DNA of 54,351 bases from Promethearchaeota archaeon (GTDB taxonomy: Archaea; Asgardarchaeota; Lokiarchaeia; Sigyniarchaeales; SOKP01), in contig JBHLOI010000021.1 of NCBI GenBank assembly GCA_048940645.1, positions 1-54,351 on the forward strand, written 5' to 3'. Position 1 is the stretch's first letter; every line of letters begins with the position of its first letter. Shown here piece after piece: positions 1,094 through 45,375 of the stretch. The position numbers were made by a program, and so were the translations under genes. The notes below the pieces were generated by a model, which worked only from the letters and a program-made list of their open reading frames with translations, searched no databases and was not told the DNA's origin.

Positions 1094-2821
1094 TTATTTT
1101 TTTGATTCTTCTCTAAGTGCTCGTTTTAGAACTTTGCCTACAGTAGTCAGCGGTAAAGATTCTCTAAATTCCCAAATTTTAGGATTTTCATACTTTGAAA
1201 GATGGTCTGCTGCATACTTTTTTAAATCATCTTTCACGGTATCTGTAGGTTGTATTCCTTCCTTAAGTTGGACTATTGCTTTAACAATTTCACTACCCGG
1301 ACGATCAGGGTCTTTTAATCCAATTATAGCAACCATTTCGATATCTGGATGTTTCGTTAAAACATCTTCGACGTGAACACTATAAACTTTATATCCAGAA
1401 ACAATTAGCATATCTTTTGTTCTATCTACAATTGTAATGTATCCATCTTCATCCATTACACCTACATCTCCAGTATGCAACCAACCATCAATTATTGTTT
1501 TAGCGTTAGCTTCTGGCTTTTTGTAATATCCCCTTGTGACGTGAGGACCTTTGCAAATTATTTCACCTGGTTCGCCGAGCTCTACTTGTTCCCCAGTTTC
1601 AACATCTACTAAACGAAGTTCAGTATCAGGTACTGGGAGACCGACGGTTCCAATTTTCTTTTTTCCATAGTAAGGATTGGCCGTAAGGATAGGTGACGTC
1701 TCTGTCATTCCATAAACTTCCATTAGTTTATTTCTTGCTTTCATAGAATTTTCGAAGTCTCTAATTGCTTCAGCGGGAAATGGAGCTGCTCCAGATACGT
1801 AGACTTCAAGTCGATCTAAAGCAGAATCTGGAACTTTATTGATCATAGGATTGTTTTTAATCGATAAGTATAGAGTAGGTACATTTACCATTAATCTTGG
1901 TTTTTTATCAATAACTTCTTCTATTATGTGTTTTGTATCTCTTGGATTAGCAATTAAAATTTGAGGGGCAGATATGTAAAGCGTACTCATGCACATTTGC
2001 AAACCAGCAAGATGAAACATGGGAAATGCACTTAGATTTATCTCTCCTTCCTTTGCTACTTCTGAATCAATCCAAGTAACAATTTGGGTCATATTTGAAA
2101 TAATATTTTTATGAGTTAATTCTGTACCTTTAGGTAATCCTGTAGTTCCACCTGTGTATTGAAGTAGAGCTAAGTCATTTTCAATATCTATGTTCACTTC
2201 TTTAACATCAGGTGTTGTTTTCATTATCTCTTGAAAATCTAAAACTAATTTTCCCGGAAAAGGTACTACTTTACCTTTTGGTATCTTTCCAATTAATTTA
2301 CCAAGGAAGACAATTGGCTTCCCGAGTCCCATATAATCAGAAACATTTGTAGTAATAACACAATTTAATTTAGGAACTTTTTCCAGGATTTTAATTAAAA
2401 CTTTAGCATAGACTGCATCAAGAGTAACAAAAAATTTAGATTCACTGTCATTGATCTGGTAAGCTAACTCAGTAGGACTTAGAAGCGGAGAACATCCTGA
2501 TGCTACTCCTCCAGCCAATAGAGTTCCAAAATGAGCTACCATATACTGAGGACAATTTGGTAAATTAATAGCAACTCTATCTCCTTTTTCTAACCCATTT
2601 TTTTGTAAAAATGTAGCGAACCTATTTACCATATCTCTAATCTCTTTAAATGAAATTTGTCTTTTCATAAAATAGCAAGCAGCTCTATCTGGGAACCTCC
2701 TCATTGCATTATCGAATAGTCTTCCAAGATTCTCCTTGGGATATTTTAAGGTAGGCAGAACATGTTTATCATAAGATTTTAGCCATATTTTAGCATCATA
2801 GGGGCTTTGTTGAGTTTGTAT
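1094..2821 (-). CDS. Long-chain-fatty-acid--CoA ligase (FadD-like AMP-binding enzyme)
   Basis: YTGGTTGLPKG, YGMTE, GWLHTGD and LPLTTVGKVLKR motifs. Track start is 2704, but the frame stays open for 39 more codons (IQTQQSPYDAKIWLKSYDKHV..., typical FadD N-terminus) to ATA at 2821, preceded by SD AGGTGA. Confidence 0.92.
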   Translation of the reverse strand: MQTQQSPYDAKIWLKSYDKHVLPTLKYPKENLGRLFDNAMRRFPDRAACYFMKRQISFKEIRDMVNRFATFLQKNGLEKGDRVAINLPNCPQYMVAHFGTLLAGGVASGCSPLLSPTELAYQINDSESKFFVTLDAVYAKVLIKILEKVPKLNCVITTNVSDYMGLGKPIVFLGKLIGKIPKGKVVPFPGKLVLDFQEIMKTTPDVKEVNIDIENDLALLQYTGGTTGLPKGTELTHKNIISNMTQIVTWIDSEVAKEGEINLSAFPMFHLAGLQMCMSTLYISAPQILIANPRDTKHIIEEVIDKKPRLMVNVPTLYLSIKNNPMINKVPDSALDRLEVYVSGAAPFPAEAIRDFENSMKARNKLMEVYGMTETSPILTANPYYGKKKIGTVGLPVPDTELRLVDVETGEQVELGEPGEIICKGPHVTRGYYKKPEANAKTIIDGWLHTGDVGVMDEDGYITIVDRTKDMLIVSGYKVYSVHVEDVLTKHPDIEMVAIIGLKDPDRPGSEIVKAIVQLKEGIQPTDTVKDDLKKYAADHLSKYENPKIWEFRESLPLTTVGKVLKRALREESKK

Positions 2822-3001
2822 CTAAATCACCTTTTATTTAATAATTTAAAATACATTATTTACGAAATTCGTAAATAACATTATTATTGATAGAAGAATT
2901 TATAAATATTTTCAAAAGTTTTTGAAGAATTCCTTTAAAAAAGAAAATTTTTTTTCTTATTTTGATCAAAGATATGTAAAAAAAGAATAAGAAAAAAGAG
3001 T

Positions 3002-4015
3002 TTAGTTAATTTCCACTTGGATTTTAATATCATCATGCAAACCGCTAGATAATTTATTAAAAGTTTCAGGTACTTGGTCTAATTTTACTTTTTTAGTTAT
3101 AATCGATTTAACGTTTACTCTTTTTTGCTCCAATAAATTTAATGCTGTTTTAAAGGAATCCTGATCAACTAAAAACATTCCCTTTATGGTAATATTTTTA
3201 GACATTAATTGCAGTATTCCTTTCATTTCAAAAGGCTCTGAATGTATCCCAATAACAATTATTGAGCCACCCCTTTTAATAAGTTGAAGTGAGGTTATAA
3301 TTGTTTCTGGTAATGCTACACAATCAAAAATGAAATCTGGTCCAATTTTTTCAGTAAGTTTAGTAATTCTACTCCATTTATTAGGAGTAAATGCCTTATC
3401 AGCACCTAATTCTAATGCTAATTTATGTTTAGATTCAACCGGTTCTATCGCATAAATATTACTTGCTCCTGCTATCTTGAGTGCTTGAATAGTTAATAGA
3501 CCAATAGTACCCATCCCAAAAACCGCTGCATTATTACCAATTTTAAAGTCTGAAACCTTAACCGCTTGAATTGCATTCGCTAAGGGTTCTACCATCGCTC
3601 CTTCTTCAAATGAAATTGAATCAGGTAATTTGTGGACTCTATCTGCTCTAATTTTTACAAATTCTGCTAAAGCTCCGTTATGAGTCACTCCTATTGTATT
3701 ATGAATACATAAAACCTCTTGGCCTTCTCTACAGTACCTACACTCTAAACATGGAACATTTGGATTGGCCGTAACCCTATCTCCAACTTTTAAATCTTTA
3801 ATATGTTTACCGATTTCAACAATTTCTCCCGAGAATTCGTGTCCTAAAATTATTTTTTGCGATTCTAAAGCCCCCGTTAAGAAAGATCCTATGTCAGAAC
3901 CACAGATCCCACAATTTTTTACTTTAATTAATGCTTCATTAGCTTGAATTTGAGGCTTTGGTAAGTCATCTCTTACTTCTACCTTATTTATTCGAGTAAA
4001 ATATATACCCTTCAA
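3002..4015 (-). CDS. Zinc-dependent alcohol dehydrogenase (MDR; sorbitol/threonine dehydrogenase-like)
   Basis: GICGSD, GHEFSG, structural Zn CxxCxxC-x7-C, GMGTIG Rossmann motif; TTG start with GGGGTG SD. Confidence 0.9.
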   Translation of the reverse strand: MKGIYFTRINKVEVRDDLPKPQIQANEALIKVKNCGICGSDIGSFLTGALESQKIILGHEFSGEIVEIGKHIKDLKVGDRVTANPNVPCLECRYCREGQEVLCIHNTIGVTHNGALAEFVKIRADRVHKLPDSISFEEGAMVEPLANAIQAVKVSDFKIGNNAAVFGMGTIGLLTIQALKIAGASNIYAIEPVESKHKLALELGADKAFTPNKWSRITKLTEKIGPDFIFDCVALPETIITSLQLIKRGGSIIVIGIHSEPFEMKGILQLMSKNITIKGMFLVDQDSFKTALNLLEQKRVNVKSIITKKVKLDQVPETFNKLSSGLHDDIKIQVEIN

Positions 4016-4075
4016 AAATATACACCCCTTTTTATTAATAAATAGAGAAAGAATTGAAAAACATTTAAGTATAAA

Positions 4076-5785
4076 TTATAAAATTCCCATCGATGCCATC
4101 AATTTTGTCCCATCTGACATTACTTGAGCAATTTTAATATTAATTACAGCTGGCTTATTTGAATTTCTAGCTCGCTCTAAAGCGGGTTTAATTTCATTTG
4201 GGTCAATTACTGTTTCTCCATAACAATTAAAACCTTCAGCACACTTTGCAAAGTCAAAATCTGGTAAATCTACATCAATAAATCGCTTCTTCATATATTT
4301 GCCTTGACATGATTTAATCATACCCCACGCTCGATTATTTGCTATTATAAAAGTCATATTTTTTAATCCTAACCGGACAGCTGTCTCTAAATCTTGGATA
4401 TTAAAAAGAAAACTACCATCTCCAACTATAGCAATCACTTGTTTATTAGGTTTAGCTAATTTGGCACCGATAGCATAAGGAATAGATGTACCTAAATGCC
4501 CCATTCCTATTGATATTAAGGTAGAGAGCGGTGGTCGTGGTTTATGAAGATTTATTTGTTCAACAGTGAAACAGGCAATATCTCCACCATCAACAACTAG
4601 TATTGCATCTTCATCCATAAATTCTAAGACTTCTTTCACCATTCTCTGCGGAATAATTGGAATTTTCTCTTTTAAGGCTTTTTTCATAAAATCATCGATA
4701 TATTTCTGCTTCATTTCAAAAACTTGTTCCGTCCAATCTCTTTTTTCCACTTTCCCAATTTTTTTAACTTCTTCAAGTACTTGCTCTAAATATATCTTAC
4801 AATCACCCTCAATACCCAAAGTTATCGGTTTAGCTCTTCCTATAATACTTGGATCAATATCAACTTGTATCATTTTTTGAGAATCTTTAAAGAAGGGTTC
4901 ATCGCCATGACCTAATGTAAATGAAAATTTAGTCCCAAGAGCTAAAATTATATCAGCTTGATAAGATATTTCTTTTCCAAATCCTTGAATTGAAGAATCA
5001 ACTAAACACTTCGACTTATTAGAGATTGTCCCAATTCCCATTATGCTTGTTATGACAGGTATCTGTAAGAATTCAGCAAATTCCTGTAATTCATTCCATG
5101 CTTCTGCTCGTGCAATTCCTCCTCCAGAAATTATTAATGGTTTTTCTGCCTTCATCAATAAATCAATTGATTTATTAATCAAATCATTACTAATAGCTGG
5201 TTTACTGAGAGATCGATAACTAATTGGGGGGTTAATTGAAACTTGATCTTCTTCTAGTTCACCAAGAAAAGCATCCTCAACTAATTCTAACAAAACTGGT
5301 CTAGACCTACCCCCTATAGCTTCACGAAATGCCTTCTGAACAGCATCTGGGATTTTTTCTATATCTCTAATGCTTCTCTGATATTTTGTAATGGGTTTAA
5401 ACATCGTAATTTGATCAAGATTTCCTTGTAAAGTAAATGAATCATCGAATCTACTGTTTACCTGATTAATTATGGCAACTAGTGGTATATTATCACTCCA
5501 AGCTGCTGCTACACCAGGGACAAGATCAGTTGCTCCAGGTCCAGCTGTTCCAAAACATACGCCTGGAGTATTAGTTAATCTTGCCCATGCATCTGCTGCA
5601 TGAGCAGCTGCTTGTTCATGTCTAAACATGACAGTTTCAATACCTTGTTCTCGACCCCATCGATAAATTGCATCAAACATATTCAAAAATTGTCCACCGA
5701 TAATACCAAACATATATTTAACATTTTCTACAAGGAGACATTTTATCAAAACATCTCCTCCATTAATTTTTGCTTTTTCCTCCAT
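4076..5785 (-). CDS. Thiamine-diphosphate-dependent enzyme, acetolactate synthase large subunit-like family
   Basis: RHEQAAAHAADAWAR, GTAGPGA, GDGSF...NN ThDP-binding motif; GGTG SD. Confidence 0.88.
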   Translation of the reverse strand: MEEKAKINGGDVLIKCLLVENVKYMFGIIGGQFLNMFDAIYRWGREQGIETVMFRHEQAAAHAADAWARLTNTPGVCFGTAGPGATDLVPGVAAAWSDNIPLVAIINQVNSRFDDSFTLQGNLDQITMFKPITKYQRSIRDIEKIPDAVQKAFREAIGGRSRPVLLELVEDAFLGELEEDQVSINPPISYRSLSKPAISNDLINKSIDLLMKAEKPLIISGGGIARAEAWNELQEFAEFLQIPVITSIMGIGTISNKSKCLVDSSIQGFGKEISYQADIILALGTKFSFTLGHGDEPFFKDSQKMIQVDIDPSIIGRAKPITLGIEGDCKIYLEQVLEEVKKIGKVEKRDWTEQVFEMKQKYIDDFMKKALKEKIPIIPQRMVKEVLEFMDEDAILVVDGGDIACFTVEQINLHKPRPPLSTLISIGMGHLGTSIPYAIGAKLAKPNKQVIAIVGDGSFLFNIQDLETAVRLGLKNMTFIIANNRAWGMIKSCQGKYMKKRFIDVDLPDFDFAKCAEGFNCYGETVIDPNEIKPALERARNSNKPAVINIKIAQVMSDGTKLMASMGIL

Positions 5786-5913
5786 GAATTACACCATTAA
5801 ATAGAATTCTTTTTTCAATTGATAATAGGTTTATCTTTCATTGTATATATAATTATCTGAGATTCAAACTATAAAATTAAGTTAGGAGGATTAGTGATTT
5901 AACAAATTAGTCA

Positions 5914-6900
5914 TTATATATCAAAAACTTGTAAAGAACTCAAAAAAGATTTTATTCCTTTAGAAATTCTTTGAATCTTATTATTATTTAATTTTAAGAC
6001 CTTTAAATTCTTTAGATTCGTGATAGAATCCGGGATTTCTCTTATAGAATTATAACTTAAATCTAATTCTTCAAGGTTCTCGAAATGAGCTATAAATTTA
6101 GGGAATTTACCGAGGTTATTCCCGCGCAATATTAATTTTTTGAGAGAATTTAGATAAATTAATGATTTAGGGATAGTTGAACCATTGAATTTTCTCAGTT
6201 CAAACTTATTATACAAATCAAGAAAAGTATCCAAGTCTTTTATTGCGATAAATGAATCGATAATGTCTTGATTAAATTTTAAGAAATACCAATTAAAATA
6301 TTTAAAATTAAGCATTTCAACATGTTTATTATTAATTAGAAGCCAAGGATTAGGATCGTTTATACAACTTATCTTCTTATAATAAGCATAAGTTAAGGAT
6401 GAGATTTCATAATTGTTTTTATCTTGCGCAAAAATGGCTTCTAAATCTAGAAAAAATCGGGATTCATTTGGGGTGACGCCTAATTGAGTGGAAAAATCTT
6501 CAATCCAATTTGAAATGGCTTTTGTAATTGATCTAGATTGATAATTATTTTCATTTTCCCCCATATTTACTATTGTTTGAATAACAACTGGCGATTTATC
6601 ATGTTCTATTACCCATAATAATGATTTTAATCCATATTTGAGATATGTATGTCCTATTGATTTAGCTGCTGCACTTCGGACGAAATGATTTTCATCAGAA
6701 AGTAGGCAATTTTCAAGTATATTAAAGATTTTTTCATTACTACTTTGTAATCTTTCGAGAGCCAGAATGCTCTTTCTTCGCATTTCAGGATTATTACTTT
6801 TTTCTAAGATGGATATTAGTAAATCTACTGCTAATGTAAAATTCATTTTTCCTTTTAAAAAATCTGATACAATTGTCTCTGGAGTAAATGAACTTGTCAT
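5914..6900 (-). CDS. HEAT-repeat + leucine-rich-repeat protein
   Basis: N-terminal HEAT-like (LLSDENHFVRSAAAKSIG); C-terminal LRRs (LKKLILRGNNL, LEELDLSYNSI, LKVLKLNNNKI). Confidence 0.85.
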   Translation of the reverse strand: MTSSFTPETIVSDFLKGKMNFTLAVDLLISILEKSNNPEMRRKSILALERLQSSNEKIFNILENCLLSDENHFVRSAAAKSIGHTYLKYGLKSLLWVIEHDKSPVVIQTIVNMGENENNYQSRSITKAISNWIEDFSTQLGVTPNESRFFLDLEAIFAQDKNNYEISSLTYAYYKKISCINDPNPWLLINNKHVEMLNFKYFNWYFLKFNQDIIDSFIAIKDLDTFLDLYNKFELRKFNGSTIPKSLIYLNSLKKLILRGNNLGKFPKFIAHFENLEELDLSYNSIREIPDSITNLKNLKVLKLNNNKIQRISKGIKSFLSSLQVFDI

Positions 6901-7232
6901 TTTTTTTTAATTCCTTTAGTAGTAACTAGGTTAACACAATATTTACTTCCTTAATTATATAATTTAGTTAATTGATTAATTAAGCCTATTAAAAAGTTCT
7001 AAGTTGAGATATATCGAAAATGTTCAAAAATTTAATGTTTTCAAAATTTCATATTATTTTTTTTTTTAAAAATTAGGTATAACTGAAAAATTTTGGTCAA
7101 CAATATAGTATTACTGAACGAATTTTTAAAGTTACAGAATTTATTATTTTAATATTAAAAATTTATAAATACGTATTTGTATTATTTTCATCAACATTTA
7201 ATACAAAATTAAATGTATCTAGTTGAAAAAAA

Positions 7233-7658
7233 ATGAGCGAAGGTAAAAAAGATTCTAATGAATTGTTAAATATATTAATGATAATCATCGGTGCTCTCTT
7301 TGTCTTTGTAGGTATACTCAATCTCTTAGCGTGGGGAGGGATCAGTTTAGGTATTGATCTATCAAATCCCTATGTTGCAGCAGCACTTACTATTCTTGGA
7401 CCTTCTGGTTTACTTTCAGCAGTACTAGGATTTTGGGCTATCGTTTCTGGAATTGGCATGTTTCGAGAAGAGGAATATGCCATGGGTATGGGTCTAGTTG
7501 TTTTAAGTGTTATGGCGATTCAAACTCTATCCGTAATGTTATCATGGTTTGGTACTCCTTGGTATTCAGTTTGGCCCAATTATATAATCTTAATTGCATT
7601 TCTAATTGGAGCGGTTGGCTTTTTCTGGTTAATTTTTACATACAAAAGATATGATTAG
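7233..7658 (+). CDS. Hypothetical integral membrane protein (about 4 TM helices)
   Basis: Four long hydrophobic segments; ATG start; T-rich tract after the stop. Confidence 0.8.
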   Translation: MSEGKKDSNELLNILMIIIGALFVFVGILNLLAWGGISLGIDLSNPYVAAALTILGPSGLLSAVLGFWAIVSGIGMFREEEYAMGMGLVVLSVMAIQTLSVMLSWFGTPWYSVWPNYIILIAFLIGAVGFFWLIFTYKRYD

Positions 7659-7834
7659 ATCCAATAAGAAATTCAAAATTAAAATATATATTTTTTTTCT
7701 TTTTTTCTTTTTGAAATAGGTATTTTTGTAAATTTACATAATATTCTAAAACAAATGTTAAAGAAATTAGGAGTTTTATTTATTAATTGAAAAAAATTAT
7801 CCTTATTAAAAATTATAATTTAAAGGATTGTAAA

Positions 7835-9367: not shown

Positions 9368-9403
9368 AACTGTTGATTTAAATTATTTTTATCAACTAAT
9401 CTT

Positions 9404-10366: not shown

Positions 10367-10370
10367 AAGA

Positions 10371-10898
10371 TCACCTCTTTTCCATCTTTTCTAACGTCAA
10401 TTCTGTAAGTACTTCAAAAGTTTTATTGACATTTTGTCCAGTTTTGCTTGAAATTTCTCCGAATCCAGAGAAATTATTTCTTTCAGATATTTGAATCCCA
10501 AAATCTCTTGATATCTTGCGTTGAGTATTTAAATCTATTTTTGATCCAACAAGTACTATCGGAATTCCTCCAGCTTTTTGTCTTACGATACTTACCCACT
10601 CAGGTATATTATCTAAAGTGGGAGGCCGAGTCACATCATAGAGAAGGAAAGCAGCATTTGCTCCTAAACAATATGTAGGGAGTAAAAATCTAAATCTTTC
10701 TTCTCCTCCTACATCCCAAATTTGTAGTTTTATCTTCTTACCATGTAATTCTATGGTCTTAACAAGGAAATCTACCCCAATTGTTAATCGCTCCGCAGGG
10801 TTAAAAATATTATAACAATATCTTTTTGAAAAAGAAGTTTTCCCTACAGATGCGTCTCCCAATAAAAGAATTTTAAATGTATAATCATATGTTGGAAT
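10371..10898 (-). CDS. Rab-like small GTPase
   Basis: G1 GDASVGKTS, G2 TIGVDF, G3 WDVGGEERF, G4 GSKID, G5 ISSKTG. Extended from track start 10862 to ATT at 10898 to include YDYTFKILLL (beta-1); GGTG SD 7 nt upstream. Confidence 0.93.
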   Translation of the reverse strand: MPTYDYTFKILLLGDASVGKTSFSKRYCYNIFNPAERLTIGVDFLVKTIELHGKKIKLQIWDVGGEERFRFLLPTYCLGANAAFLLYDVTRPPTLDNIPEWVSIVRQKAGGIPIVLVGSKIDLNTQRKISRDFGIQISERNNFSGFGEISSKTGQNVNKTFEVLTELTLEKMEKR

Positions 10899-11923: not shown

Positions 11924-12790
11924 TTAGTGCCCAAATAATGAAAAAGTATTATTATAGAAAATATCTTGTTTTTCTTCATCATTGATTGGTAAACATAAAA
12001 TTTTAGAAATCTCGAGTTGTAGGGGATTCGTTACAGGAGCATCAGAACCAAAAAGAATTCTTTTACTCCCTACATTTCTAATTAGATTTAGAATCCCATA
12101 CGGGATTGAACAAGACGTCTCAAATAAAATATTTTTATATTTTTTCAAGCTTAATGATAAATCAAGAGCTAATTCCATTGCTAAAGCTGCATGTCCGATA
12201 ATGATTTTAAGATTTGGATATTTTGATGCAAGCTTTCCAATATCATTACTACTAATTCCGCTAAAAATGGCGAACTTTGGAGTGAAATGGATAAATAGGG
12301 GAAAATTTTGATTATAATTCTGCATAAAATCCACTAATTTTAATATATCCTTAGGAATTTTTATTAGATGAATACCAGAGTGAATTTTTACTCCACAGAA
12401 GCCTTTTTCAAAATGACTTTCTAAAATTTTATAACTCATATCTTCCTCTTCGTGAGGTATATTTGGATTAAACCAGAAGAATTTATAAAACCTTTTCGGG
12501 GCTTTTTCTGCGATATCTATGACATCTTGATGATCTAATTGATCCTTTGGCATAGCATTTTTCATACGTTCGAATATTTTTGATACTTCACTATCTTCTT
12601 TAATATTTTTCCTCGTTCCTTCCTTTTCTTTAGAATAGATTTTAGAACTTACTGCTCTGTTTATTGTTGTTAAAACCGCTTTTTCAACATTGTGTTTATC
12701 CATATAACTAATTAGATTTTCACTCTTATCTAAAAAGGACCCAAAAGTATGTATGTGAGCATCAAAAATCTTAAATTTTAACTCTTCTAT
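11924..12790 (-). CDS. Amidohydrolase family 2 protein (TIM-barrel metallohydrolase)
   Basis: GVKIH, FIH, IIGH and ILFGSDAP motifs. The metal-binding DAHIH lies upstream of track start 12703, so the start is placed at ATA 12790 (GGTG SD 7 nt upstream). Confidence 0.88.
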   Translation of the reverse strand: MEELKFKIFDAHIHTFGSFLDKSENLISYMDKHNVEKAVLTTINRAVSSKIYSKEKEGTRKNIKEDSEVSKIFERMKNAMPKDQLDHQDVIDIAEKAPKRFYKFFWFNPNIPHEEEDMSYKILESHFEKGFCGVKIHSGIHLIKIPKDILKLVDFMQNYNQNFPLFIHFTPKFAIFSGISSNDIGKLASKYPNLKIIIGHAALAMELALDLSLSLKKYKNILFETSCSIPYGILNLIRNVGSKRILFGSDAPVTNPLQLEISKILCLPINDEEKQDIFYNNTFSLFGH

Positions 12791-15323: not shown

Positions 15324-15334
15324 ATTTAGACATC

Positions 15335-27335: not shown

Positions 27336-27337
27336 TT

Positions 27338-32773: not shown

Positions 32774-33100
32774 CTAAGATGTTTTACCCAAAACTTGGGA
32801 TAATTTTTTTCTGTATTCAGTAAAAGCTTGTCGTCCTTTGTCTGATAAATGAAGTAGGGTTTGAGGTTTTTTTCCTTTAAATCGTTTCTCAACATTTACA
32901 TAACCTGCTTCTTCAAGTTTGGTAACATGCGATGATAAATTTCCCCACGTTAATTTTGTTTGATTTTTTAAAAATACCATATCTGCACTTTCTACTACGT
33001 ATAAATAAGCTATAATGCTAAGACGAGCAGGTTCATGAATTAATTTATCGATATCTGTAATCGAAGTTATTTTATCTCTATTATTCTTTTCCTTGCTCGT
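32774..33100 (-). CDS. Winged-HTH transcriptional regulator (HTH_34/ArsR-like)
   Basis: DKLIHEPARL...SADMVFL...LTWGNLSSHVTKLEEAGYV...KKPQT...GRQAF. The IHEPARL helix lies upstream of track start 32980; best start is ACG at 33100 (M-S-K-E) after AGGTTGA. Confidence 0.85.
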   Translation of the reverse strand, partial: TSKEKNNRDKITSITDIDKLIHEPARLSIIAYLYVVESADMVFLKNQTKLTWGNLSSHVTKLEEAGYVNVEKRFKGKKPQTLLHLSDKGRQAFTEYRKKLSQVLGKTS

Positions 33101-33123
33101 CTTAAATCAACCTTTTAGATTTT

Positions 33124-35033: not shown

Positions 35034-36665
35034 CTACTCTATTTTATTTAATTTTTTCATCCCAATATATAGTAATATTGTCCCTACTACGATATTGAGA
35101 GCAAAAACGGGAGTTAACATTACAATTCTCATCATTATTACTGTCTTTGGATTGAAAAATATTAACATGAAGATGGGCATCATAATCGCTGGCTGCATTA
35201 TAAGCATAGAAATCATAGAATTAGATTTCATATTTGAATCTTTTTCTCCAAAAGCGGGATTCAAACATTGTAGACCTATTGATTGAAGCATAGAAATTGG
35301 AATATTTGCTAGAAATAAAGAAAAGAATATAATTGCATCAAGAAGTCCAATTTTAGCGAATAGTGAGTGTAGAATAGTTATAAATAATGATATAAATAAA
35401 CCTATTACTAGCATATTCATTATATAAGAATAAACCAATCCCTTAATCCCTCTTGGAGATTTCTTATAAACCCATATAATGTCTTTTGAATTGATGAATA
35501 TAAGATGACCTAACATTATACTTGACATTAATCCTCCTAGTACAATTAATATTGAGGAGCTCAGTATTATTCCTTTGTAGTCTTCCATTGTTGAAGATGT
35601 AAACCATGCCATAAATCCAACTAATCCTAATACATAGGCTATTCTTGCGAGATTAGCTTTTTTCCTTAGGAATAATTTCATTTGAACTATCAATAATCCT
35701 CCGAATTTGCGTCCAGCAACTTTATATAACATTGAATAGAAATAGTTTCCTTTTTTAGCTATCGAAGTGCTTTTTACACTTACTCCTTCTAAAGAGTAAA
35801 AAACATGCGCTTTTTTATATGAAAAATATAAAACAGTTAGAGGAATACAAAGAGCTAAACCGATACTTAACCAAATATTTAAAATGTATGAATTAAGTAG
35901 CAAAGGGTCAATTGCATGTAATATAATATTAGAAAACCAAATTGATGGATAAAAACTTAGCCAATTCTTTAACTCTGGATTCATAAGTATCTCGTTGATG
36001 AAAAATATCACTGCATACATCATTATGACCATAACAATCGTAAGAATCATGATTAACGCTTTTCCCCAATCTCGAGCACTTTCACTTTTCGAGATTTTAT
36101 GCTCTAACCAGCTAGAAATTATAGAACCAATTAAATTAGCAAAATACACAAGACCAAATGCACAGACATATATAATGACGTATTGAATTATCGTTAAATC
36201 TATAATCGGATTAATCATTCCTACTACTATTGGCGCAAAAATCAACACTGCAAAAGTATAAAGGGGTAACTTACCTAAAAATTCTCCAAGAAAAATGTCG
36301 CGTGCTAAAACAGGAGAAGCTACCAAAGATTCTTTAATTCTTGATTCATCCTTGTTATAGACGTTATTTAAAGGAAGCATTAATATGATTAAAAAGAGTA
36401 TCATCATGAACGATTCAGTTAAAAGAGCGACGACAGGTTTAAATATATCTGCATATTGAGCTGCTATAGTCGGCATGAATGAATCGAATAAGATTGGGGC
36501 TATAATGAATGCCCACAGTATTAATATTAAATATGAACAAATAAAAAATCTTTTTCTATTGTTTCTAAAACTACTAGTTCTTAGCATAATTTCGTTTTTA
36601 GCGATTGTTAGCCATAATTTTCGCTTATTTGCTTGATAATCATATTCAGGTTCTAAGATAAGAAT
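35034..36665 (-). CDS. ABC-type exporter permease (multi-TM)
   Basis: About 12-14 TM segments directly downstream of the ABC ATPase. Frame is open upstream of track start 36587 (LWLTIAKNEI) to ATT 36665, 7 nt after GGTG and 1 nt after the ATPase stop. Confidence 0.78.
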   Translation of the reverse strand: MLILEPEYDYQANKRKLWLTIAKNEIMLRTSSFRNNRKRFFICSYLILILWAFIIAPILFDSFMPTIAAQYADIFKPVVALLTESFMMILFLIILMLPLNNVYNKDESRIKESLVASPVLARDIFLGEFLGKLPLYTFAVLIFAPIVVGMINPIIDLTIIQYVIIYVCAFGLVYFANLIGSIISSWLEHKISKSESARDWGKALIMILTIVMVIMMYAVIFFINEILMNPELKNWLSFYPSIWFSNIILHAIDPLLLNSYILNIWLSIGLALCIPLTVLYFSYKKAHVFYSLEGVSVKSTSIAKKGNYFYSMLYKVAGRKFGGLLIVQMKLFLRKKANLARIAYVLGLVGFMAWFTSSTMEDYKGIILSSSILIVLGGLMSSIMLGHLIFINSKDIIWVYKKSPRGIKGLVYSYIMNMLVIGLFISLFITILHSLFAKIGLLDAIIFFSLFLANIPISMLQSIGLQCLNPAFGEKDSNMKSNSMISMLIMQPAIMMPIFMLIFFNPKTVIMMRIVMLTPVFALNIVVGTILLYIGMKKLNKIE

Positions 36666-36666
36666 G

Positions 36667-37780: not shown

Positions 37781-39253
37781 ATGGAACAACAAAAGAGTTC
37801 AGACTTAAATGTAAAGGATATTTCATTTATTAACGATATTAAATCAATGGCTGTTATTGGGATTTCAAAAAAGAGAAATTTTTTCTTTTTAAAAAATCAT
37901 CAAGAAAGTTTTAGAGGTGATTTATTTGCTATTCATCCAAATATAAAAGAAATTCCAAGCTTTCCAAAACAAAACATTTTTGCTTCAGTTAAAGACATCC
38001 CTGTTGAAGTTGATTTTGCTTTTATAGCAGTCCCAGCAAATAAAGTTTTAAGAGTTATTGATGATTGTGTTGAAAAAGGAGTAAGATTAGCCAGTGTTTT
38101 TACTGCAGAATTTTCAGACGCTGGTACAGAAGAAGGGATTGCTTTAGAAAAAGAATTAATAAGAAGAGCTCAAAATAGAGTAAGGATTCTTGGGCCTAAT
38201 GGAATGGGTATCTTTTACCCTAAAAAAGGAATTACTTGGCGAACAAATTTTCCTACTACCCCAGGAAATATTGGATTTATTGCTCAATCAGGGGGAATAT
38301 GTAACATTGCCATTTATACAGCTAAAGAATATGGTCTCACTTTTTCTAAGGTATTTTCCTTTGGTAATGGAGCAGATTTGGATTTTGTAGATTTATTTTA
38401 TTTTTTAAGCAATGATCCCGATACAGATATAATTTTATGTTATGTAGAGGGAATTAAGCAAGAGAGAGCGAATGATTTAAGAAAAATTTTTTCCGATAAT
38501 AAAAAACCAACTATAATACTAAAAGGCGGAAAATCTAAGAGAGGTGAAATTGCTGTTAGGACACATACTGCATCAATATCAGGAAATAATCGTATTTGGA
38601 ATTCACTATTTATGCAATATAATTTGATTGAAGTAAATAGTTTAGAACAACTAATCAATACCGCAAGAATAATAGATTTTTATGGAATTAATAAAATAGA
38701 GAATGTTGCGGTGTTTAGCATAAGTGGAGGTTATGGTGTTGTATTAGTAGATTTAATCGAGAATGCAGGTATGAAGGTTCCAGAATTCAGTCTCGAAGTT
38801 CAAGAAAAATTAAAGAAAGAATTCTTCGTTCACGGTACTAGTCCTAGAAATCCCTTAGATGTAGCTGCTCAATTAACATATAGTGAATCTATTAAAAAGA
38901 TAATCGATATTGCTCTATCAGATGAAAAAATTGATGCATTAATAATGGATTTTCCAAGCTGGTATTTTAGTTATGATTTTTTTATTTCGCCTGATAAGAA
39001 CTATGAATCAAATATTATTGAAGCTTTAAGTTTAGGGCATAAACATAAAAAACCATTATTTCCAATTATTCAACCTGCAAATACGCCAAATGATCAGGTT
39101 CGTATTTCAAGATTATTAGCAAATAAAAAAGTTCCTGTCTTCAGAGATCCTTTAGAAGTTATACCTCTTCTACCTAAAATTAATAATTATTATAGGCAGC
39201 AATTAGTTAATAAAAAAGTAAAATTAAAAAAAAAGAAAGTACATTCTTTTTAA
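37781..39253 (+). CDS. ADP-forming acyl-CoA synthetase alpha subunit (AcdA-like CoA-binding protein)
   Basis: AVIGIS, ILGPNGMG, IAQSGG, SFGNGADL, phospho-His motif RTHTASISG, SGGYGV, NPLDV. Confidence 0.88.
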   Translation: MEQQKSSDLNVKDISFINDIKSMAVIGISKKRNFFFLKNHQESFRGDLFAIHPNIKEIPSFPKQNIFASVKDIPVEVDFAFIAVPANKVLRVIDDCVEKGVRLASVFTAEFSDAGTEEGIALEKELIRRAQNRVRILGPNGMGIFYPKKGITWRTNFPTTPGNIGFIAQSGGICNIAIYTAKEYGLTFSKVFSFGNGADLDFVDLFYFLSNDPDTDIILCYVEGIKQERANDLRKIFSDNKKPTIILKGGKSKRGEIAVRTHTASISGNNRIWNSLFMQYNLIEVNSLEQLINTARIIDFYGINKIENVAVFSISGGYGVVLVDLIENAGMKVPEFSLEVQEKLKKEFFVHGTSPRNPLDVAAQLTYSESIKKIIDIALSDEKIDALIMDFPSWYFSYDFFISPDKNYESNIIEALSLGHKHKKPLFPIIQPANTPNDQVRISRLLANKKVPVFRDPLEVIPLLPKINNYYRQQLVNKKVKLKKKKVHSF

Positions 39254-39562
39254 TTATTTCTTTAATTTTCTGACTAACTTAGCTAGAATAGGAACAGAAT
39301 CTTCTACTTCTTTAACAGGAGAAATCTTATACTTCATAAACAATCCTGGAAGCGCGATTCTCCAAGCATTAGCATTTATTAATACGTCATCCACACTATC
39401 AGTATCAACTATAGCAACACCCCAATGTTCTGGAGTAATATACCAACCTTTAACATCCCATTTTTCTTGCTTTATTTCAGCTTCTTGGATTTTCTGGTAC
39501 GCGTTTAATATTCCTGTCGGATCCAAAGAGGGATTTAATTCATAATATACAAGAAATAACAT
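39254..39562 (-). CDS. Small hypothetical protein (DUF3303-like)
   Basis: MLFLVYYE...GWY...GVAIVDTDS...ISPV pattern; GGTGA SD. Confidence 0.6.
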   Translation of the reverse strand: MLFLVYYELNPSLDPTGILNAYQKIQEAEIKQEKWDVKGWYITPEHWGVAIVDTDSVDDVLINANAWRIALPGLFMKYKISPVKEVEDSVPILAKLVRKLKK

Positions 39563-39732
39563 TCTTTTTTTTTCACCTTATTTTTACATTGGATTGTATT
39601 ATTAGTGATTATACTTTTCAATTTAAGTATTTACATTTTTGTAAAATAAATTGCTTAAAAATCATGAATTAAAATAAGGGGATAAATGTTCTAAAACAAG
39701 ATTATTTTAAACAGATGTTTAAAAAGTAATTA

Positions 39733-41421
39733 TTAAAATATTTGGGGACTCTGGTATTCTCCGAACACTTCTCTTAATACGTCGCAAATTTCTTGAATTG
39801 TAGCATAAGATTTAACCGTCTCTATCATCACTGGCATAATATTTTCTGTAGATTGGGCAATTTTTTTAAGTTCTTCTAATTTTTCTTTAACAATTTGATC
39901 ATCTCTTTTTCTTTTAAACTCTTTTAATGCTTCAATAATCTTCTTTTCTTCTTCTTGGTCCTGCTTAAATGTATCTATTTTACATTCTTCATCTGTACAA
40001 AATACATTTACGCCGATTACTTTGTTTAAGCTATGTTCAACTCTTTTCTGTTCTTTATATGCATTGTCTTGAATTTCTTGTTGAATGTAAGCTCTTTCAA
40101 TAGCTATTGGCATTCCACCCATTCTATCTATTTTTTCAATATATTCCATAGCTTTTTCTTCCAATTTTGAAGTTAAATATTCTATGTAATAAGAACCCCC
40201 TAAAGGATCAACCACATCAGTGATACCAGACTCATGAGCAAGAACTTGCTGTGTTCTTAGAGAGATTCTCACAGAATCTTCTGTAGGTAAGGCTAATGCT
40301 TCGTCTGCTCCACAAGTATGCAAGGATTGAGTTCCTCCTAAAATGGCAGCTAATGCTTGGAGAGTTACTCTTATGATATTTACATTTGGTTGTTGCGCAG
40401 TAAGGGTCACTCCAGCAGTTTGAGTATGAAATCGTAATCTTAGAGAATTTGGATCTTTTGCTTTAAATCTCTCCTTCATTATTGTTGCCCACAATCTTCT
40501 AGCTGCTCTTAATTTTGCTATTTCCTCGAAAAAGTAGTTATGTGTGGTGAAAAAGAAGGATAATCTTGAAGCAAATTCATCTATATCAATACCACGCTTT
40601 AAAACTTCCTCTACATAAGCAATACCGTCTGCTAAAGTAAATGCTATCTCTTGAACAGCATTACATCCCGCTTCCCTCATATGATAACCACTAATCGAAA
40701 TAGTATTGAAACGTGGTAACTTTTGAGAGCAATATTCGACAACATCTGCTACTAACCTTAATGATGACGTTGGAGGAAAGATATAAGTACCCCTTGCAAT
40801 ATATTCCTTTAAAATATCATTTTGAACAGTACCAGTTAATTGAGCAGGTTTAATACCTTGTTTTTCACCAACAGCAATATACATCGCTAATAATACTGCA
40901 GTTGGTGCATTAATAGTCATACTGGTCGAAACTTTATCTAGAGGAATGCCTTCAAAAACTTTTTCAAAATCCTTTAATGAATTTACAGTTACTCCAACTC
41001 TCCCTACTTCACCAATGCAAATTTGATTGTCTGAATTATAACCCATTTGAGTTGGAAGATCAAATGCAATTGATAATCCTTTTTGTCCTTGTGATATAAG
41101 ATATTTAAATCTTTGATTTGTTTTGGAGGCATCTGCAAATCCACCATACTGCCGCATTGTCCATACTTTTCCACGATACATATTGGGATACACTCCTCTT
41201 GTAAATGGCGGCTTTCCCGGAAACCCTATATCATTTAAATAATTAACATTTTCAATATCCTCTGGCCCATATAAATGTTTTAATGGAATCCCAGAAGGAG
41301 TTTCAAATTTATCTTTAATTTCTCCTTTTGCAACAAATTTATTTAAAATACTTTTTACCCATTCTTCGCTCTCAATTTTAATCTTATCAAGTTTATCTTT
41401 AGAAAACAATAATTTCACCAA
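39733..41421 (-). CDS. Methylmalonyl-CoA mutase, substrate-binding (large) subunit
   Basis: PFTRGVYPNMY, WTMRQYGGF (Tyr), GLSIAFDLPT, QNDILKEYIARG (Arg), ISISGYH, DPLGGSY; no B12-binding domain. Confidence 0.93.
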   Translation of the reverse strand: MVKLLFSKDKLDKIKIESEEWVKSILNKFVAKGEIKDKFETPSGIPLKHLYGPEDIENVNYLNDIGFPGKPPFTRGVYPNMYRGKVWTMRQYGGFADASKTNQRFKYLISQGQKGLSIAFDLPTQMGYNSDNQICIGEVGRVGVTVNSLKDFEKVFEGIPLDKVSTSMTINAPTAVLLAMYIAVGEKQGIKPAQLTGTVQNDILKEYIARGTYIFPPTSSLRLVADVVEYCSQKLPRFNTISISGYHMREAGCNAVQEIAFTLADGIAYVEEVLKRGIDIDEFASRLSFFFTTHNYFFEEIAKLRAARRLWATIMKERFKAKDPNSLRLRFHTQTAGVTLTAQQPNVNIIRVTLQALAAILGGTQSLHTCGADEALALPTEDSVRISLRTQQVLAHESGITDVVDPLGGSYYIEYLTSKLEEKAMEYIEKIDRMGGMPIAIERAYIQQEIQDNAYKEQKRVEHSLNKVIGVNVFCTDEECKIDTFKQDQEEEKKIIEALKEFKRKRDDQIVKEKLEELKKIAQSTENIMPVMIETVKSYATIQEICDVLREVFGEYQSPQIF

Positions 41422-41586
41422 CCTTGAAATGATTTCTACATATTTATTATAATTAATACAATTTACATTTATCCATTCTCTTACTATACCAAGAATTAAC
41501 TTTAATTGATTAATCTTTCATTTTTTTTCAAATAAATATGAATTTTTAAACGATAGATTTATATAGTATTCGTTCCATATAATATT

Positions 41587-41600
41587 GTACTATATAGTAC
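41587..41600. promoter_or_regulatory. Perfect 14-bp palindrome, candidate operator of the flavin reductase gene
   Basis: GTACTATATAGTAC lies between a TATA-like TTTATATA (about 41558-41565) and ATG 41624. Confidence 0.5.
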
Positions 41601-41623
41601 TATTGAAAATTATGGAGTAATAG

Positions 41624-42190
41624 ATGAAAAAGATTAAAACTGGTTGGAATTTACCCATTTTACCATTACCAATATGTATTGTAGGTGCACATGTAAATGG
41701 TAAACCAAACTTTAATACAGTAGCCTGGTTTAATATGCTAAGCTCAAAACCACCTTTAATTGGAGTAACTATGTTAAAAACGCATTACACTAATAAAGGT
41801 ATAAATGAGAATAAGTCCTTTAGCATTAATATTCCATCGTGTAGTATGGTTATAGCAACTGATTATTGTGGCCTATATTCTGGTGATAAAGTGGATAAAT
41901 CACAAATTTTTGATGTGTTTTATGGAGAACTTAAAACAGCTCCGATGATTAAAGAAGCCGTGTTTAATATTGAGTGTAAATTAGTTAATACTATAGACTT
42001 TAAAGATGATGATTTTTTTATTGGTGAAATTAACGAAGTCTATTCAGAAAAAAAAGAGTATCTTAAAAATCCATTAGATATAAAGAAATTAAATCTCTTT
42101 ATGTTTTTAATGCCAAATGGTCCATATTTGAAGGTTGGAGAGTATCTAGAAAAAGCATATGACGTTGGAAAAAATTATAAACCAAAATAG
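41624..42190 (+). CDS. Flavin reductase family protein (flavoredoxin-like)
   Basis: PLPICIVG, GKPNF, HYTN, DYCGLYSG, APMIKE, IECKL; GGAG SD. Confidence 0.88.
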   Translation: MKKIKTGWNLPILPLPICIVGAHVNGKPNFNTVAWFNMLSSKPPLIGVTMLKTHYTNKGINENKSFSINIPSCSMVIATDYCGLYSGDKVDKSQIFDVFYGELKTAPMIKEAVFNIECKLVNTIDFKDDDFFIGEINEVYSEKKEYLKNPLDIKKLNLFMFLMPNGPYLKVGEYLEKAYDVGKNYKPK

Positions 42191-42376
42191 TTAAAATTTC
42201 TATTTAATCTAATTTTATCTAATTTTTTTTTTAAGTGTATATTTCATTCCCTTAGAATGATTCCTATATTTTAATAATGATTTATATATTATGCATTTAT
42301 CATTCCTTTGTTAGATTAAGTATTTTTTTTAATTGGTCTTCTATAATTATTTAATTATCAAATAGGTATATAATAA

Positions 42377-43567
42377 ATGAAATTTATAGCATTTTTTGAG
42401 TTTCATATAGATAAGCTAGATAGTGTTCTTGAAACATGGTCAGAAACGAATCAAAATGTAAATAATTTAGAAATATATCCATTTCATATTTTGGCTGAAA
42501 GTTATAGAGAAATCACTGGTTTTGTTATATTCAAGTCTGAAACGATATTAAATCCTGAAATTGGGAAATTTTTAGCAAAGTACGTTCAAAAAGGTGTAGA
42601 TATTAAACTCATCCCAATCTGGAAAAACTCGAAACTTAAAAAGGAGCTCACGAAATTCATAGAAGCAAAACAAAAGACAGAACAACATTGGGAAGAATTT
42701 AAATACCAAAAGATTAAGAACATTGGTAAAACAAAGACTCTTGAAATTCTCCCACTTATAGATTGGCATTCTATAAGAGATGATTTAAAGGTTGAACTTG
42801 GTGTTTCTTATCTAATCAAGACAGATGAAAAAACAATACTATTTGATGTTGGATTGAACTCAGGAAAGAGTGACCCATCACCATTATTAATTAACATGGA
42901 TGTATTGGGGATCTTTATAGAGGACATTGATATTATTATTATTTCTCATAATCATGGTGATCATGTTGGCGGAGGAAAATGGTCTGAAAATAATACATTT
43001 TCTCTTTCAACTCATCAGATTGATCTTGGTGATATGAAGGTGTATACTCCAGTTCCAATGACTTATCCTGGATTGAATCCAATTTGCTCAGATAAACCTA
43101 TGGTTATTGCTAAAGGAGTTGCTACTATAGGAACGATATCTAATTCCTTATTTTTAATGGGTTTAGTACAAGAACAAGCACTAGCTATAAATGTTGAGGG
43201 AAAGGGAGTAGTGCTAGTAGTTGGATGTGGTCACCAAACCTTACCTAGAATAATTGAACGTACTGAAGCATTATTTGATGAACCTATTTATGGTCTTATC
43301 GGAGGGCTTCATTACCCAGTCAATGGTGGTCCTATTGAGATAATGGGATGGTTCCCTCATAAAATATTTGGAACTGGGAAGCTTCCATGGCAAGCGATTA
43401 CAATGGAAGAATTGGAAGAAAATATTAAATTTTTAAAGAGGAGAAACCCTAAGATAGTTTGTCTTTCTGCTCATGATAGTAGTGAAGTAAGTATAAAAGC
43501 ATTCCATGATGCGTTTCCAAAAGCTAGTAAAGATATTAACGTAGGAGAGAGAATTATCATCAGGTAG
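42377..43567 (+). CDS. MBL-fold metallo-hydrolase (MJ0301-like) with an extra N-terminal domain of about 100 aa
   Basis: LFDVG, SHNHGDHVGG, EQAL, GCGH, IGGLH, SAH. Confidence 0.85.
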   Translation: MKFIAFFEFHIDKLDSVLETWSETNQNVNNLEIYPFHILAESYREITGFVIFKSETILNPEIGKFLAKYVQKGVDIKLIPIWKNSKLKKELTKFIEAKQKTEQHWEEFKYQKIKNIGKTKTLEILPLIDWHSIRDDLKVELGVSYLIKTDEKTILFDVGLNSGKSDPSPLLINMDVLGIFIEDIDIIIISHNHGDHVGGGKWSENNTFSLSTHQIDLGDMKVYTPVPMTYPGLNPICSDKPMVIAKGVATIGTISNSLFLMGLVQEQALAINVEGKGVVLVVGCGHQTLPRIIERTEALFDEPIYGLIGGLHYPVNGGPIEIMGWFPHKIFGTGKLPWQAITMEELEENIKFLKRRNPKIVCLSAHDSSEVSIKAFHDAFPKASKDINVGERIIIR

Positions 43568-43913
43568 GTTCAAATACATAAGCATTTACTTCCTTACCAT
43601 CCAAATTATTACAAATTTTTTTATGAACAGCTTTTAATTTCATTCCTATTTTTAAATTATTTTGGGTTGTAATTTGTCCGATTGCTTTTATTCTATTTTC
43701 AAATTCTATCAGTCCAAGAGCATAAGAGCCATGATCCCTAAACTCTGCAGGAGGAGCAGTCAAAATTGTAAATGTTAATAGTTTTCCTTGACCTGATGCT
43801 TCTACTATTGAGAAGTTATCAGATTTACATTTTAAACATCTCAGATGGGTTTTATATTGTAAAAAACCACAGTTATTACATTTTCTCCATTCTAATATTT
43901 CTTCATTATTCAT
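43560..43913 (-). CDS. DUF35 Zn-ribbon/OB-fold protein
   Basis: KCNNCG...RCLKC, GQGKLLTFT, IGMKL; probable ATG 43913 (track TTG 43922). Confidence 0.85.
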   Translation of the reverse strand: MNNEEILEWRKCNNCGFLQYKTHLRCLKCKSDNFSIVEASGQGKLLTFTILTAPPAEFRDHGSYALGLIEFENRIKAIGQITTQNNLKIGMKLKAVHKKICNNLDGKEVNAYVFEPT

Positions 43914-43958
43914 TTTAATCAACGGTAATATTAAATATAACGAATATCATTAGTAAAT

Positions 43959-44516
43959 TTATCCCGTTAATTCGAGAGATAATGCTTTATGGTACAAGTC
44001 CTTGATAAGCGTGTTGAAGGCTTTAAATACTCCTTGACCTGTTTTTGCTGATGTATTAAAATACCCAAGAAAATTACGTTGGTCTACTATTTTTTGAGTG
44101 ATAATATGATCTAAATTGTTTTCATCCACTAGATCAATTTTATTAGCGAATAAAACAACAGGAATGCTCCCACAAAACCGTAAAATGTCATCGTGCCAAT
44201 TAGTAATGTTATTGAAACTACTTTTACCTAGATCATTTTCTTCAAGGCTATATACTATAATGGCAGCTCCACTATCCCTATAAAAAGAAGGTCGCAGAAA
44301 ACCGAAGTCATCTTGGCCAGCTATATCCCAAAATAATAATCTAATAGTATCTCCTTTAATTTCCTTATCATATTTAGAAAGTTGCGCACCGATAGTTTTT
44401 ATATATTCTGTATTAAATGTACCCTTTGTAAATCTTTTTAATAATGAAGTTTTTCCTACGCCCCAATTACCAATAACAGCAATCTTAAATTTAAAATCAA
44501 TACTAGTAGTGCTCAT
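43959..44516 (-). CDS. Rab-like small GTPase (paralogue 1)
   Basis: GNWGVGKTS, YIKTIG, WDIAGQ, NKID, TSAKTG. Confidence 0.95.
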   Translation of the reverse strand: MSTTSIDFKFKIAVIGNWGVGKTSLLKRFTKGTFNTEYIKTIGAQLSKYDKEIKGDTIRLLFWDIAGQDDFGFLRPSFYRDSGAAIIVYSLEENDLGKSSFNNITNWHDDILRFCGSIPVVLFANKIDLVDENNLDHIITQKIVDQRNFLGYFNTSAKTGQGVFKAFNTLIKDLYHKALSLELTG

Positions 44517-44562
44517 TGAATTGACTTATATAGAGATTAGTAAATTTTTTTGATTAATGAAT

Positions 44563-44590
44563 GATCAGATCTTTTTTAATATAAATCTTA
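44563..44590 (-). promoter_or_regulatory. Conserved GTPase promoter, copy 1
   Basis: + strand GATCAGATCTTTTTTAATATAAATCTTA aligns ungapped with 49264-49291 and 53184-53211; contains TTTATA on the minus strand. Confidence 0.6.
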
Positions 44591-44683
44591 ACTTATAAGA
44601 TAACTAATTATAACTTCATATTAAATAATCATAATCAAAAGATTGATTATTAAAAAAAAATATAAAAATCAAAAAAAAGCTCT

Positions 44684-45094
44684 TTAATTTATATATCTAA
44701 TTCCTTGAAAGTATTCTTGAGGAGAAAAGCCAAATAGTAAAGCCGCATGAAGTAATTGTAAATTAATTTCATCACTAGCACTAGAAATGCTTTCTTTGCT
44801 CATATCTGCTTCATTTAATTCTTTCAATCTTTTAAAAACCGAAGATTTAAGTTTCTTATACTTGCCAAAATATCCTCCATACGCGTTGAAAAGATTTACC
44901 ATCAACTCAATATCATTTTTAGGAAATCTTTTATAACATATTTCACAGATGACTCTACTATGAACTCCTGATTGGTAAAATGTTGCTCTATGTGTGATCT
45001 TCTCTTTACAAATATCACATTCTATTGAACTTAAATAGGAAGATTGATGTTGTTGTCCTTTTTTTTCCTTATCATCATGCAAAATTTGTTCCAA
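44684..45094 (-). CDS. Hypothetical protein with CxxC...CxxC zinc finger
   Basis: CDIC-x17-CEIC; TTG start with AGGTGA SD; A-run (minus-strand U-tract) after the stop. Confidence 0.78.
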   Translation of the reverse strand: MEQILHDDKEKKGQQHQSSYLSSIECDICKEKITHRATFYQSGVHSRVICEICYKRFPKNDIELMVNLFNAYGGYFGKYKKLKSSVFKRLKELNEADMSKESISSASDEINLQLLHAALLFGFSPQEYFQGIRYIN

Positions 45095-45141
45095 TTATAT
45101 ATCACCTTTCTAATTTTTTACCAGTCTTTAATTTCTTTAAA

Positions 45142-45357
45142 TTAAGTTTTAAATCTATCTGGATCTACATAATAATAATTTAAAGTTTCTTTCCATCTTT
45201 TCAAAGCTCTTTTTTTTCTAATCATTTTTGAATAAAAATCTTCTTTAATAATAGTGATGAGCTCACGCTTTACGTTCGAGTCATTTTCAGAATTTTCCTT
45301 AAAAATTTCATGCAAAAAATCTTTAATATCATACAAAATTATTTTACTTTCGATCAG
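45142..45357 (-). CDS. Small protein (71 aa) ending in RALKRWK-x3-NYYY-x2-PDxFK motif
   Basis: Track ORF 45142..45336 extended 7 codons to CTG 45357, which is 7 nt after GAGGTG. Confidence 0.75.
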   Translation of the reverse strand: MIESKIILYDIKDFLHEIFKENSENDSNVKRELITIIKEDFYSKMIRKKRALKRWKETLNYYYVDPDRFKT

Positions 45358-45375
45358 ACTATATCACCTCTCAAT

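Follow-up and report, generated by a model that had tools for sequence, protein, structure and literature searches.

Probable translation starts at near-cognate codons behind Shine-Dalgarno sequences in an AT-rich lokiarchaeal genome

The window analyzed here is the complete 54,351-nucleotide (nt) contig JBHLOI010000021.1 (contig C24) from the metagenome-assembled genome (MAG) of an uncultured Loki-type Asgard archaeon. The MAG comprises 3.83 Mb in 126 contigs, has a G+C (GC) content of 29.8% and is about 90% complete. Six intact genes of the window, all on the minus strand, appear to begin not at ATG, GTG or TTG (canonical codons) but at a codon differing from ATG in one base (near-cognate codons), preceded by a Shine-Dalgarno (SD) sequence at the usual distance. 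Together with a larger set of such sites found throughout the genome, these six are very probably genuine translation starts positioned by the SD sequence. The genes, the last of which is an open reading frame (ORF) without a family assignment, are as follows.

1094..2821, minus strand: site 1, FadD-like acyl-CoA synthetase (AMP-binding), 575 codons from ATA 2821-2819; SD AGGTGA 2832-2827, 6-nt spacer.
10371..10898, minus strand: site 2, Ras/Rab-like small GTPase, ATT 10898-10896; SD AGGTG 10910-10906, 7-nt spacer.
11924..12790, minus strand: site 3, amidohydrolase (Amidohydro_2), ATA 12790-12788; GGTG 12801-12798, 7-nt spacer.
32774..33100, minus strand: site 4, winged-helix (HTH_34) regulator, probable ACG 33100-33098; weak SD AGGTTGA 33113-33107, 6-nt spacer.
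35034..36665, minus strand: site 5, ABC-2-type permease, ATT 36665-36663; GGTG(G), with GGTG at 36676-36673, 7-nt spacer.
45142..45357, minus strand: site 6, 71-codon small ORF, CTG 45357-45355; SD GAGGTGA 45370-45364, spacer of 6 nt after GGTGA or 7 nt after GGTG.

The 3′ end of the 16S rRNA of this organism is …GGATCACCTCCT, and the full SD sequence is therefore AGGAGGTGATCC. Canonical starts across the genome peak at a gap of 7-8 nt from the SD, and the ordinary starts at 4015, 5785, 19970, 45486 and 49725, used for comparison, have GGTG 6-7 nt upstream. The gap is 6-7 nt at all six candidate sites; five are preceded by GGTG, and the AGGTTGA of site 4 offers only AGGT for pairing. A preliminary description of the window had reported these six codons and motifs, and the sequence reads as it claimed. 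No in-frame ATG, GTG or TTG lies between the upstream stop and the candidate codon at any of the six sites. A systematic scan of the window returned the same six sites and no additional upstream case, while only about 0.1 would be expected in the window by chance under the strict criteria given below. Leaderless initiation, with no SD and a start at the 5′ end of the mRNA, was not seen at these sites, since an SD is conserved 6-7 nt upstream in all six. Out-of-frame ATGs near sites 1, 2 and 5 were considered as starts and rejected, because each reaches a stop within about 15 codons.

The same genes could be explained by translation from the first downstream ATG, GTG or TTG, the upstream segment being a conserved 5′ leader and the proteins being naturally short. 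Gene callers have picked such downstream starts, and at site 6 a TTG stands 7 codons downstream. The short forms would, however, be missing portions of Pfam domains as well as catalytic or structural motifs. At site 1, where a TAG stop immediately precedes ATA 2821, the AMP-binding domain begins at residue 36 and the first ATG (2704) is residue 40. At site 2 the Ras domain begins at residue 9, the first TTG (10862) is residue 13, and a start there would remove strand beta-1. The DAHIH (HxH) motif of site 3 lies 19 codons upstream of ATG 12703, and at site 4 HTH_34 begins at residue 26 and the first ATG is residue 41. At site 5, where the upstream gene ends 1 nt ahead of ATT 36665, a strongly conserved block (LW..IAKNEI.RTS.FRNHR) sits upstream of ATG 36587, and the N-terminus encoded from ATT aligns with the M-x-x-L-T-T-E at which ATG-initiated orthologues begin. 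The preliminary description had placed conserved elements upstream of the first canonical codon and downstream of an in-frame stop, and the domain boundaries bear this out. Moreover, the downstream canonical codon is missing in close relatives: TTG 10862 reads TTA in several of them, and of the four close genomes with ATT at site 5 only our own has ATG 36587, the other three having AAG there. The upstream segments have the score of coding sequence and show synonymous variation among orthologues, and ATG-starting orthologues begin at the homologous codon. We consider downstream initiation very unlikely.

For each protein we read the homologous start region in up to 40 congeneric genomes; the counts include our own genome unless stated otherwise. 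At site 1 the homologous codon is ATA in three to four genomes, ATT in one and ATG in seven, each with an SD about 7 nt upstream. At site 2 the 19 other genomes of the genus have ATT (10), ATA (3), ATG (4) or GTG (2) behind an invariant GGTG; the gene tree requires at least five start-codon changes, and only these four codons were seen. ATA stands 7 nt after the SD of site 3 in 11 genomes, and ATG at or adjoining this codon in three; four further genomes have an ATG a few codons downstream, with no SD. In the amidohydrolase orthologues L049, L053, L055 and L056 we observed GTA, two mismatches from ATG, at the 7-nt position and an in-frame ATT or ATC at gap 4; none of the four has a canonical codon before the HxH motif.

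The ACG of site 4 is retained in five close genomes, and more distant orthologues have ATG (3), ATC (3), ATA (3), ATT (1) and ACG (1) at the corresponding position 7 nt after the SD. Some doubt attaches to this site from an ATG that two of these five close genomes have five codons upstream, where our own genome has an in-frame TGA. The winged-helix genes of these relatives (L060/L061) start with ATG-AGC-TGG, and the same bases read AAA-GGT-TGA in our genome (window 33098-33113 region). It is likely, judging from this comparison, that an old start was turned into an SD-like AGGT plus an in-frame stop, and that ACG five codons downstream now serves as the start. At site 6 the homologous codon is CTG in four genomes, TTG in ten and ATG in one, always with GAGGTG or GGAGGTG upstream; no protein family defines the N-terminus of this ORF. 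The region 44684-45486 (minus strand) holds three tandem small ORFs with a strong SD before each. The first two have a common C-terminal motif, RALKRWK..NYYY..PD.FK, and the three gave no Pfam match.

In some species, then, the homologous codon is ATG, GTG or TTG, and in other species of the genus, represented by independent MAGs, it is ATA, ATT, ATC, ACG or CTG behind the same SD. An orthologue alignment of this kind had been put forward in the preliminary description as a check, and it turned out in favour of the near-cognate starts. Because canonical and near-cognate codons interchange at the same SD in independent MAGs, both assembly error and gene decay are excluded as explanations. An error that turned a real ATG into ATA or ATT might be suspected in a MAG of 126 contigs with about 90% completeness. 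Against this, the codons recur in independent assemblies (ATT in 11 of 20 Rab genes, ATA in 11 amidohydrolases), and some 45-75 sites across the genome speak against it too; its probability is negligible. That the genes are decaying pseudogenes which lost their start codons is suggested solely by the missing ATG, and is hardly credible: the frames are intact without internal stops, identity is 60-98% in as many as 40 species, which retain the SD, and the pattern recurs at dozens of loci. Overall, we regard the near-cognate start as highly probable at each of sites 1, 2, 3 and 5 and as probable for the CTG of site 6; the ACG of site 4 is the least certain of the six, with the balance moderately in its favour.

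To ask how these codons behave relative to ordinary codons, internal positions with an Ile codon in our own genome served as control columns. ATG, GTG or TTG occupied 14 of 56 orthologue cells (25%) in the start columns and 66 of 1742 (3.8%) in the internal Ile columns (p = 5e-8). The start column therefore acts as a start codon. At internal ATA, ATT and ATC columns an ATN codon was kept in 72-86% of orthologue cells. Since internal ATN stays ATN, ATA has not been reassigned, and a variant code in which ATA means Met finds no support in these columns.

The genome-wide analysis used 3277 non-overlapping stop-to-stop ORFs of at least 100 codons; for each distance after an SD 5-mer, the in-frame codon between the upstream stop and the first canonical codon was tabulated. 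At gaps of 6-8 nt in frame there were 202 canonical and 214 other codons. Near-cognates (ATA/ATT/ATC/CTG/ACG) made up 73 (34%) of the latter, as against 13.6% at gaps of at least 12 nt and 10.5% out of frame. The four most enriched of all codons at this gap were ATA (3.1-fold, p = 5e-5), ATT (2.1-fold, p = 7e-4), ACG (4.5-fold, p = 0.018) and ATC (2.3-fold, p = 0.03); a tabulation of this kind had been proposed in the preliminary description. AAG, AGG, GTA, TTA, TAT and TTT showed no enrichment at the SD gap tested genome-wide. The first canonical codon followed near-cognates at a median distance of 19 codons and other codons at a median of 2. With SD 4-mers the near-cognate excess amounted to about 75 sites (p = 1.5e-10).

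Under strict criteria (5-mer SD, gap of 6-8, first canonical codon 8 or more codons away) we counted 52 near-cognate sites versus 201 canonical ones, with about 6.6 expected per 3277 ORFs from the 42 hits to other codons. The 52 sites comprise ATT (26), ATA (14), ATC (7), ACG (4) and CTG (1), and the 202 SD-led canonical starts comprise ATG (140), TTG (47) and GTG (15); ATT is thus commoner than GTG. The share of TTG agrees with an earlier remark that TTG starts are frequent; in the window TTG occurs in 6 of about 14 SD-led canonical starts. From the strict counts it follows that about 18% of strong-SD first starts are near-cognate. Most likely some 45-75 genes of this genome start at ATA, ATT, ATC, ACG or CTG behind an SD. 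Segments from the near-cognate codon to the first canonical codon had a coding score (mean log-likelihood ratio per codon) of +0.104, compared with +0.154 for true N-termini and -0.051 for stop-free non-coding extensions (+0.104 versus -0.051, p = 9e-7). The SD is slightly longer at near-cognate sites, 5.75 versus 5.49 nt (p = 0.009).

Two AT-rich, SD-driven bacterial replicons were run through the same script as controls. Bacillus phage G (200 kb, about 30% GC) gave no near-cognate and 44 canonical sites (0/44), and Clostridium acetobutylicum pSOL1 (31% GC) gave two and 26 (2/28), so that near-cognates accounted for 0-7%. In Candidatus Harpocratesius repetitus, of the same order as our organism and of 31% GC, the pattern is present (6/22, against a baseline of 8%). 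The controls and Harpocratesius together therefore indicate that the habit, strong in AT-rich members of the Lokiarchaeia, does not simply come about wherever AT richness and SD use coincide. Two further Asgard genomes, of higher GC content (G089, G064), yielded a few single plausible cases and no enrichment over other codons; as a test of spread across Asgards, the comparison with Harpocratesius and these two genomes is underpowered. One of the two pSOL1 hits looks real. In the Clostridium control a beta-xylosidase (L209, pSOL1, record ~124994-125072, minus strand) has ATT 8 nt after the SD and a signal-peptide-like segment upstream of the annotated start; for CA_RS19940 (L210, record 155427-155442) RefSeq gives an ATC start where CTG lies 6 nt after the SD. 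Firmicutes, too, may have a few near-cognate starts that go unrecognized.

The preferred explanation, that these codons are SD-positioned starts, suggests the following mechanism. Pairing of GGTG or GAGGTGA in the mRNA with the 16S 3′ end would put the P site about 7 nt downstream, where the ordinary initiator Met-tRNA (CAU) would start on a codon one base off AUG. The mismatch would fall mostly in the third position (AUA, AUU, AUC), with ACG or CUG rarer. Met-tRNAi would itself decode the near-cognate starts, and aIF1 proofreading may be relatively permissive, or be outweighed by the SD. AT mutation pressure could feed changes from ATG to ATA or ATT, and near-cognate codons would be tolerated in this AT-rich genus, with long evolutionary retention and free swapping with ATG, GTG and TTG. 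The genes of two components of this machinery lie on another contig.

Contig C43 ~12090-12222, plus strand: initiator tRNA (tRNAi) gene, A1:U72, GGG:CCC stem, loop CUCAUAA, anticodon CAU, two introns.
Contig C43:35900-36330, minus strand, outside the window: aIF1 (SUI1), with no canonical start upstream of the CPxC zinc motif.

Neither a weakening of the three G:C pairs nor a changed anticodon was seen at the level of the tRNAi gene. One of its introns follows position 37, and the other lies in the T-arm region. ARAGORN recovered 13-17 tRNAs but not the initiator, whether or not introns were allowed; strict regular expressions also failed, and an Rfam tRNA search in which 150 of about 320-350 candidates were scored did not have the initiator among them. 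It was found with a looser anticodon-arm expression; about 30 tRNAs were found in the MAG altogether. Loop 1 of aIF1 reads RRKWGR, compared with KRRFGK in M. jannaschii, a conservative substitution that leaves it basic and aromatic. In M. jannaschii/Pyrococcus, loop 1 residues R31, Y32 and K34 bind the 30S-mRNA complex (PMC6237735). Loss or radical change of aIF1 was accordingly rejected, and the fidelity substitutions for which the preliminary description had proposed to look were not found in loop 1.

As the tRNAi gene and aIF1 are ordinary, relaxed start-codon discrimination is something we infer, not something we have shown. This qualifies the earlier statement that initiation is SD-driven with relaxed discrimination. 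SD-positioned near-cognate starts stand, but an SD precedes only about 15-25% of the genes in the genome; 'SD-driven' therefore covers this subset, to which the conclusions are confined. In the window, no SD-like 4-mer stands 5-9 nt ahead of any early start candidate in about 30 of the 52 ORFs, which are probably leaderless or SD-independent.

The ordinary appearance of tRNAi and aIF1 could also mean that something unseen acts: a dedicated decoding device such as a modified C34 in the initiator tRNA, RNA editing or an extra initiation factor. 5-Formylcytidine (f5C) at C34 lets mitochondrial tRNA-Met read AUA, and third-position mismatches dominate here (ATT, ATA and ATC make up 47 of the 52 strict sites). 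Yet no gene-level evidence of such a device was found, C34 modification would not explain the ACG and CTG also in use, and internal ATA and ATT columns behave as Ile, with no change of code. We consider a device of this kind improbable.

Several points weigh against the reading of these codons as SD-positioned starts. The start sites were deduced from sequence. The genomes compared are related and not independent of each other, and both the gene set (stop-to-stop ORFs of 100 codons or more) and the SD definition (exact k-mers) are heuristic. Both controls are small bacterial replicons, one of which (pSOL1) has one or two plausible near-cognate starts of its own. Neither aIF1 nor tRNAi has an obvious fidelity-lowering change that would account for the tolerance. 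At individual sites, the SD of site 4 is weak, an in-frame TTG (45336) offers an alternative to the CTG of site 6 in our own genome only, and some FadD orthologues have an in-frame GTG within the SD. This GTG was rejected as the FadD start in our own genome, where TAG lies between it and ATA 2821.

The aIF1 gene may itself belong to the near-cognate set. Most likely, to judge from its upstream region, aIF1 of this genome starts at ATT, which is overlapped by a 5-codon GTG mini-ORF. In other Asgard families aIF1 starts mostly at ATG, with ATA 7 nt after the SD in G059, G070 and G081 and CTG at the same distance in G054/G066. A speculative extension, to which we give a rather low probability, is that Lokiarchaeia evolved lowered stringency, with AUU, AUA and AUC as regular, tunable SD-led starts and aIF1 itself made from a weak AUU, AUA or CUG start. 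If so, the output of the near-cognate gene set would follow the level of aIF1. This would parallel, in the archaeal lineage nearest to eukaryotes, the way in which eukaryotic eIF1 regulates itself and non-AUG starts are controlled.

Near-cognate starts behind an SD mean that public gene calls lose the front ends of proteins. The exact truncated forms, a 536-amino-acid FadD-like protein (from ATG 2704) and a 259-amino-acid amidohydrolase, are present in NCBI, JGI/IMG, ENA and Logan, as expected from the earlier suggestion that gene callers truncate these proteins. Searches for eukaryote-like proteins draw on Asgard proteomes, almost all of them derived from MAGs whose genes were called with start models limited to ATG, GTG and TTG. 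Truncation here costs the GTPase strand beta-1, the HxH metal site of the amidohydrolase and the first helix of the regulator, and truncated forms have consequences for domain assignment, predicted structures and constructs for expression. The problem touches at least 1.4-2.3% of genes and about one strong-SD start in five. For annotation, the remedy would be a start model in which ATT, ATA, ATC, ACG and CTG are permitted behind an SD; NCBI table 11 permits ATT, ATC, ATA and CTG starts. How an aIF1/aIF2-type machinery tolerates third-position mismatches becomes a testable question. A full-text literature search in a limited collection returned no report of near-cognate starts in Asgard archaea.

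The closest bacterial parallels are infC and pcnB of E. coli, which start at AUU; as here, a one-base variant of AUG stands at normal distance from the SD, and orthologues elsewhere have canonical codons. These two are the only confirmed AUU starts of E. coli, where AUA, AUC, AUU and CUG give 0.02-3% of the AUG level (10.1101/063800). In contrast to these two genes, about 45-75 genes and some 18% of strong-SD starts are concerned here, and ATT starts outnumber GTG starts. The role of gatekeeper would fall to aIF1 here and to IF3 in bacteria, and autoregulation of the infC type, in which a protein that sets stringency represses the weak start of its own gene, is inapplicable to the six genes. 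AT-rich mitochondria and Mollicutes (tables 2, 4 and 5) likewise combine an AT-rich genome, frequent ATN starts and mis-annotated starts, but here ATA is not reassigned and tRNAi keeps three G:C pairs and CAU. With S. solfataricus and P. abyssi our organism has in common a pre-initiation complex prepositioned by the SD and an aIF1 with a basic/aromatic loop 1. In those species aIF1 reportedly selects against non-canonical starts (PMC6237735); such starts are common here. Eukaryotic non-AUG initiation, governed by eIF1, eIF1A and eIF5, involves the same factor family (aIF1 = eIF1, aIF1A, aIF2) and uses the near-cognates CUG, ACG, AUU and AUA with Met-tRNAi. The start is positioned here by SD pairing, not by scanning or Kozak context, and the codons are the main starts of conserved proteins, whereas in eukaryotes they belong mostly to upstream ORFs or N-terminal extensions. 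Finally, eIF1 controls its own synthesis via a weak start site, and aIF1 of our organism most likely starts at ATT.

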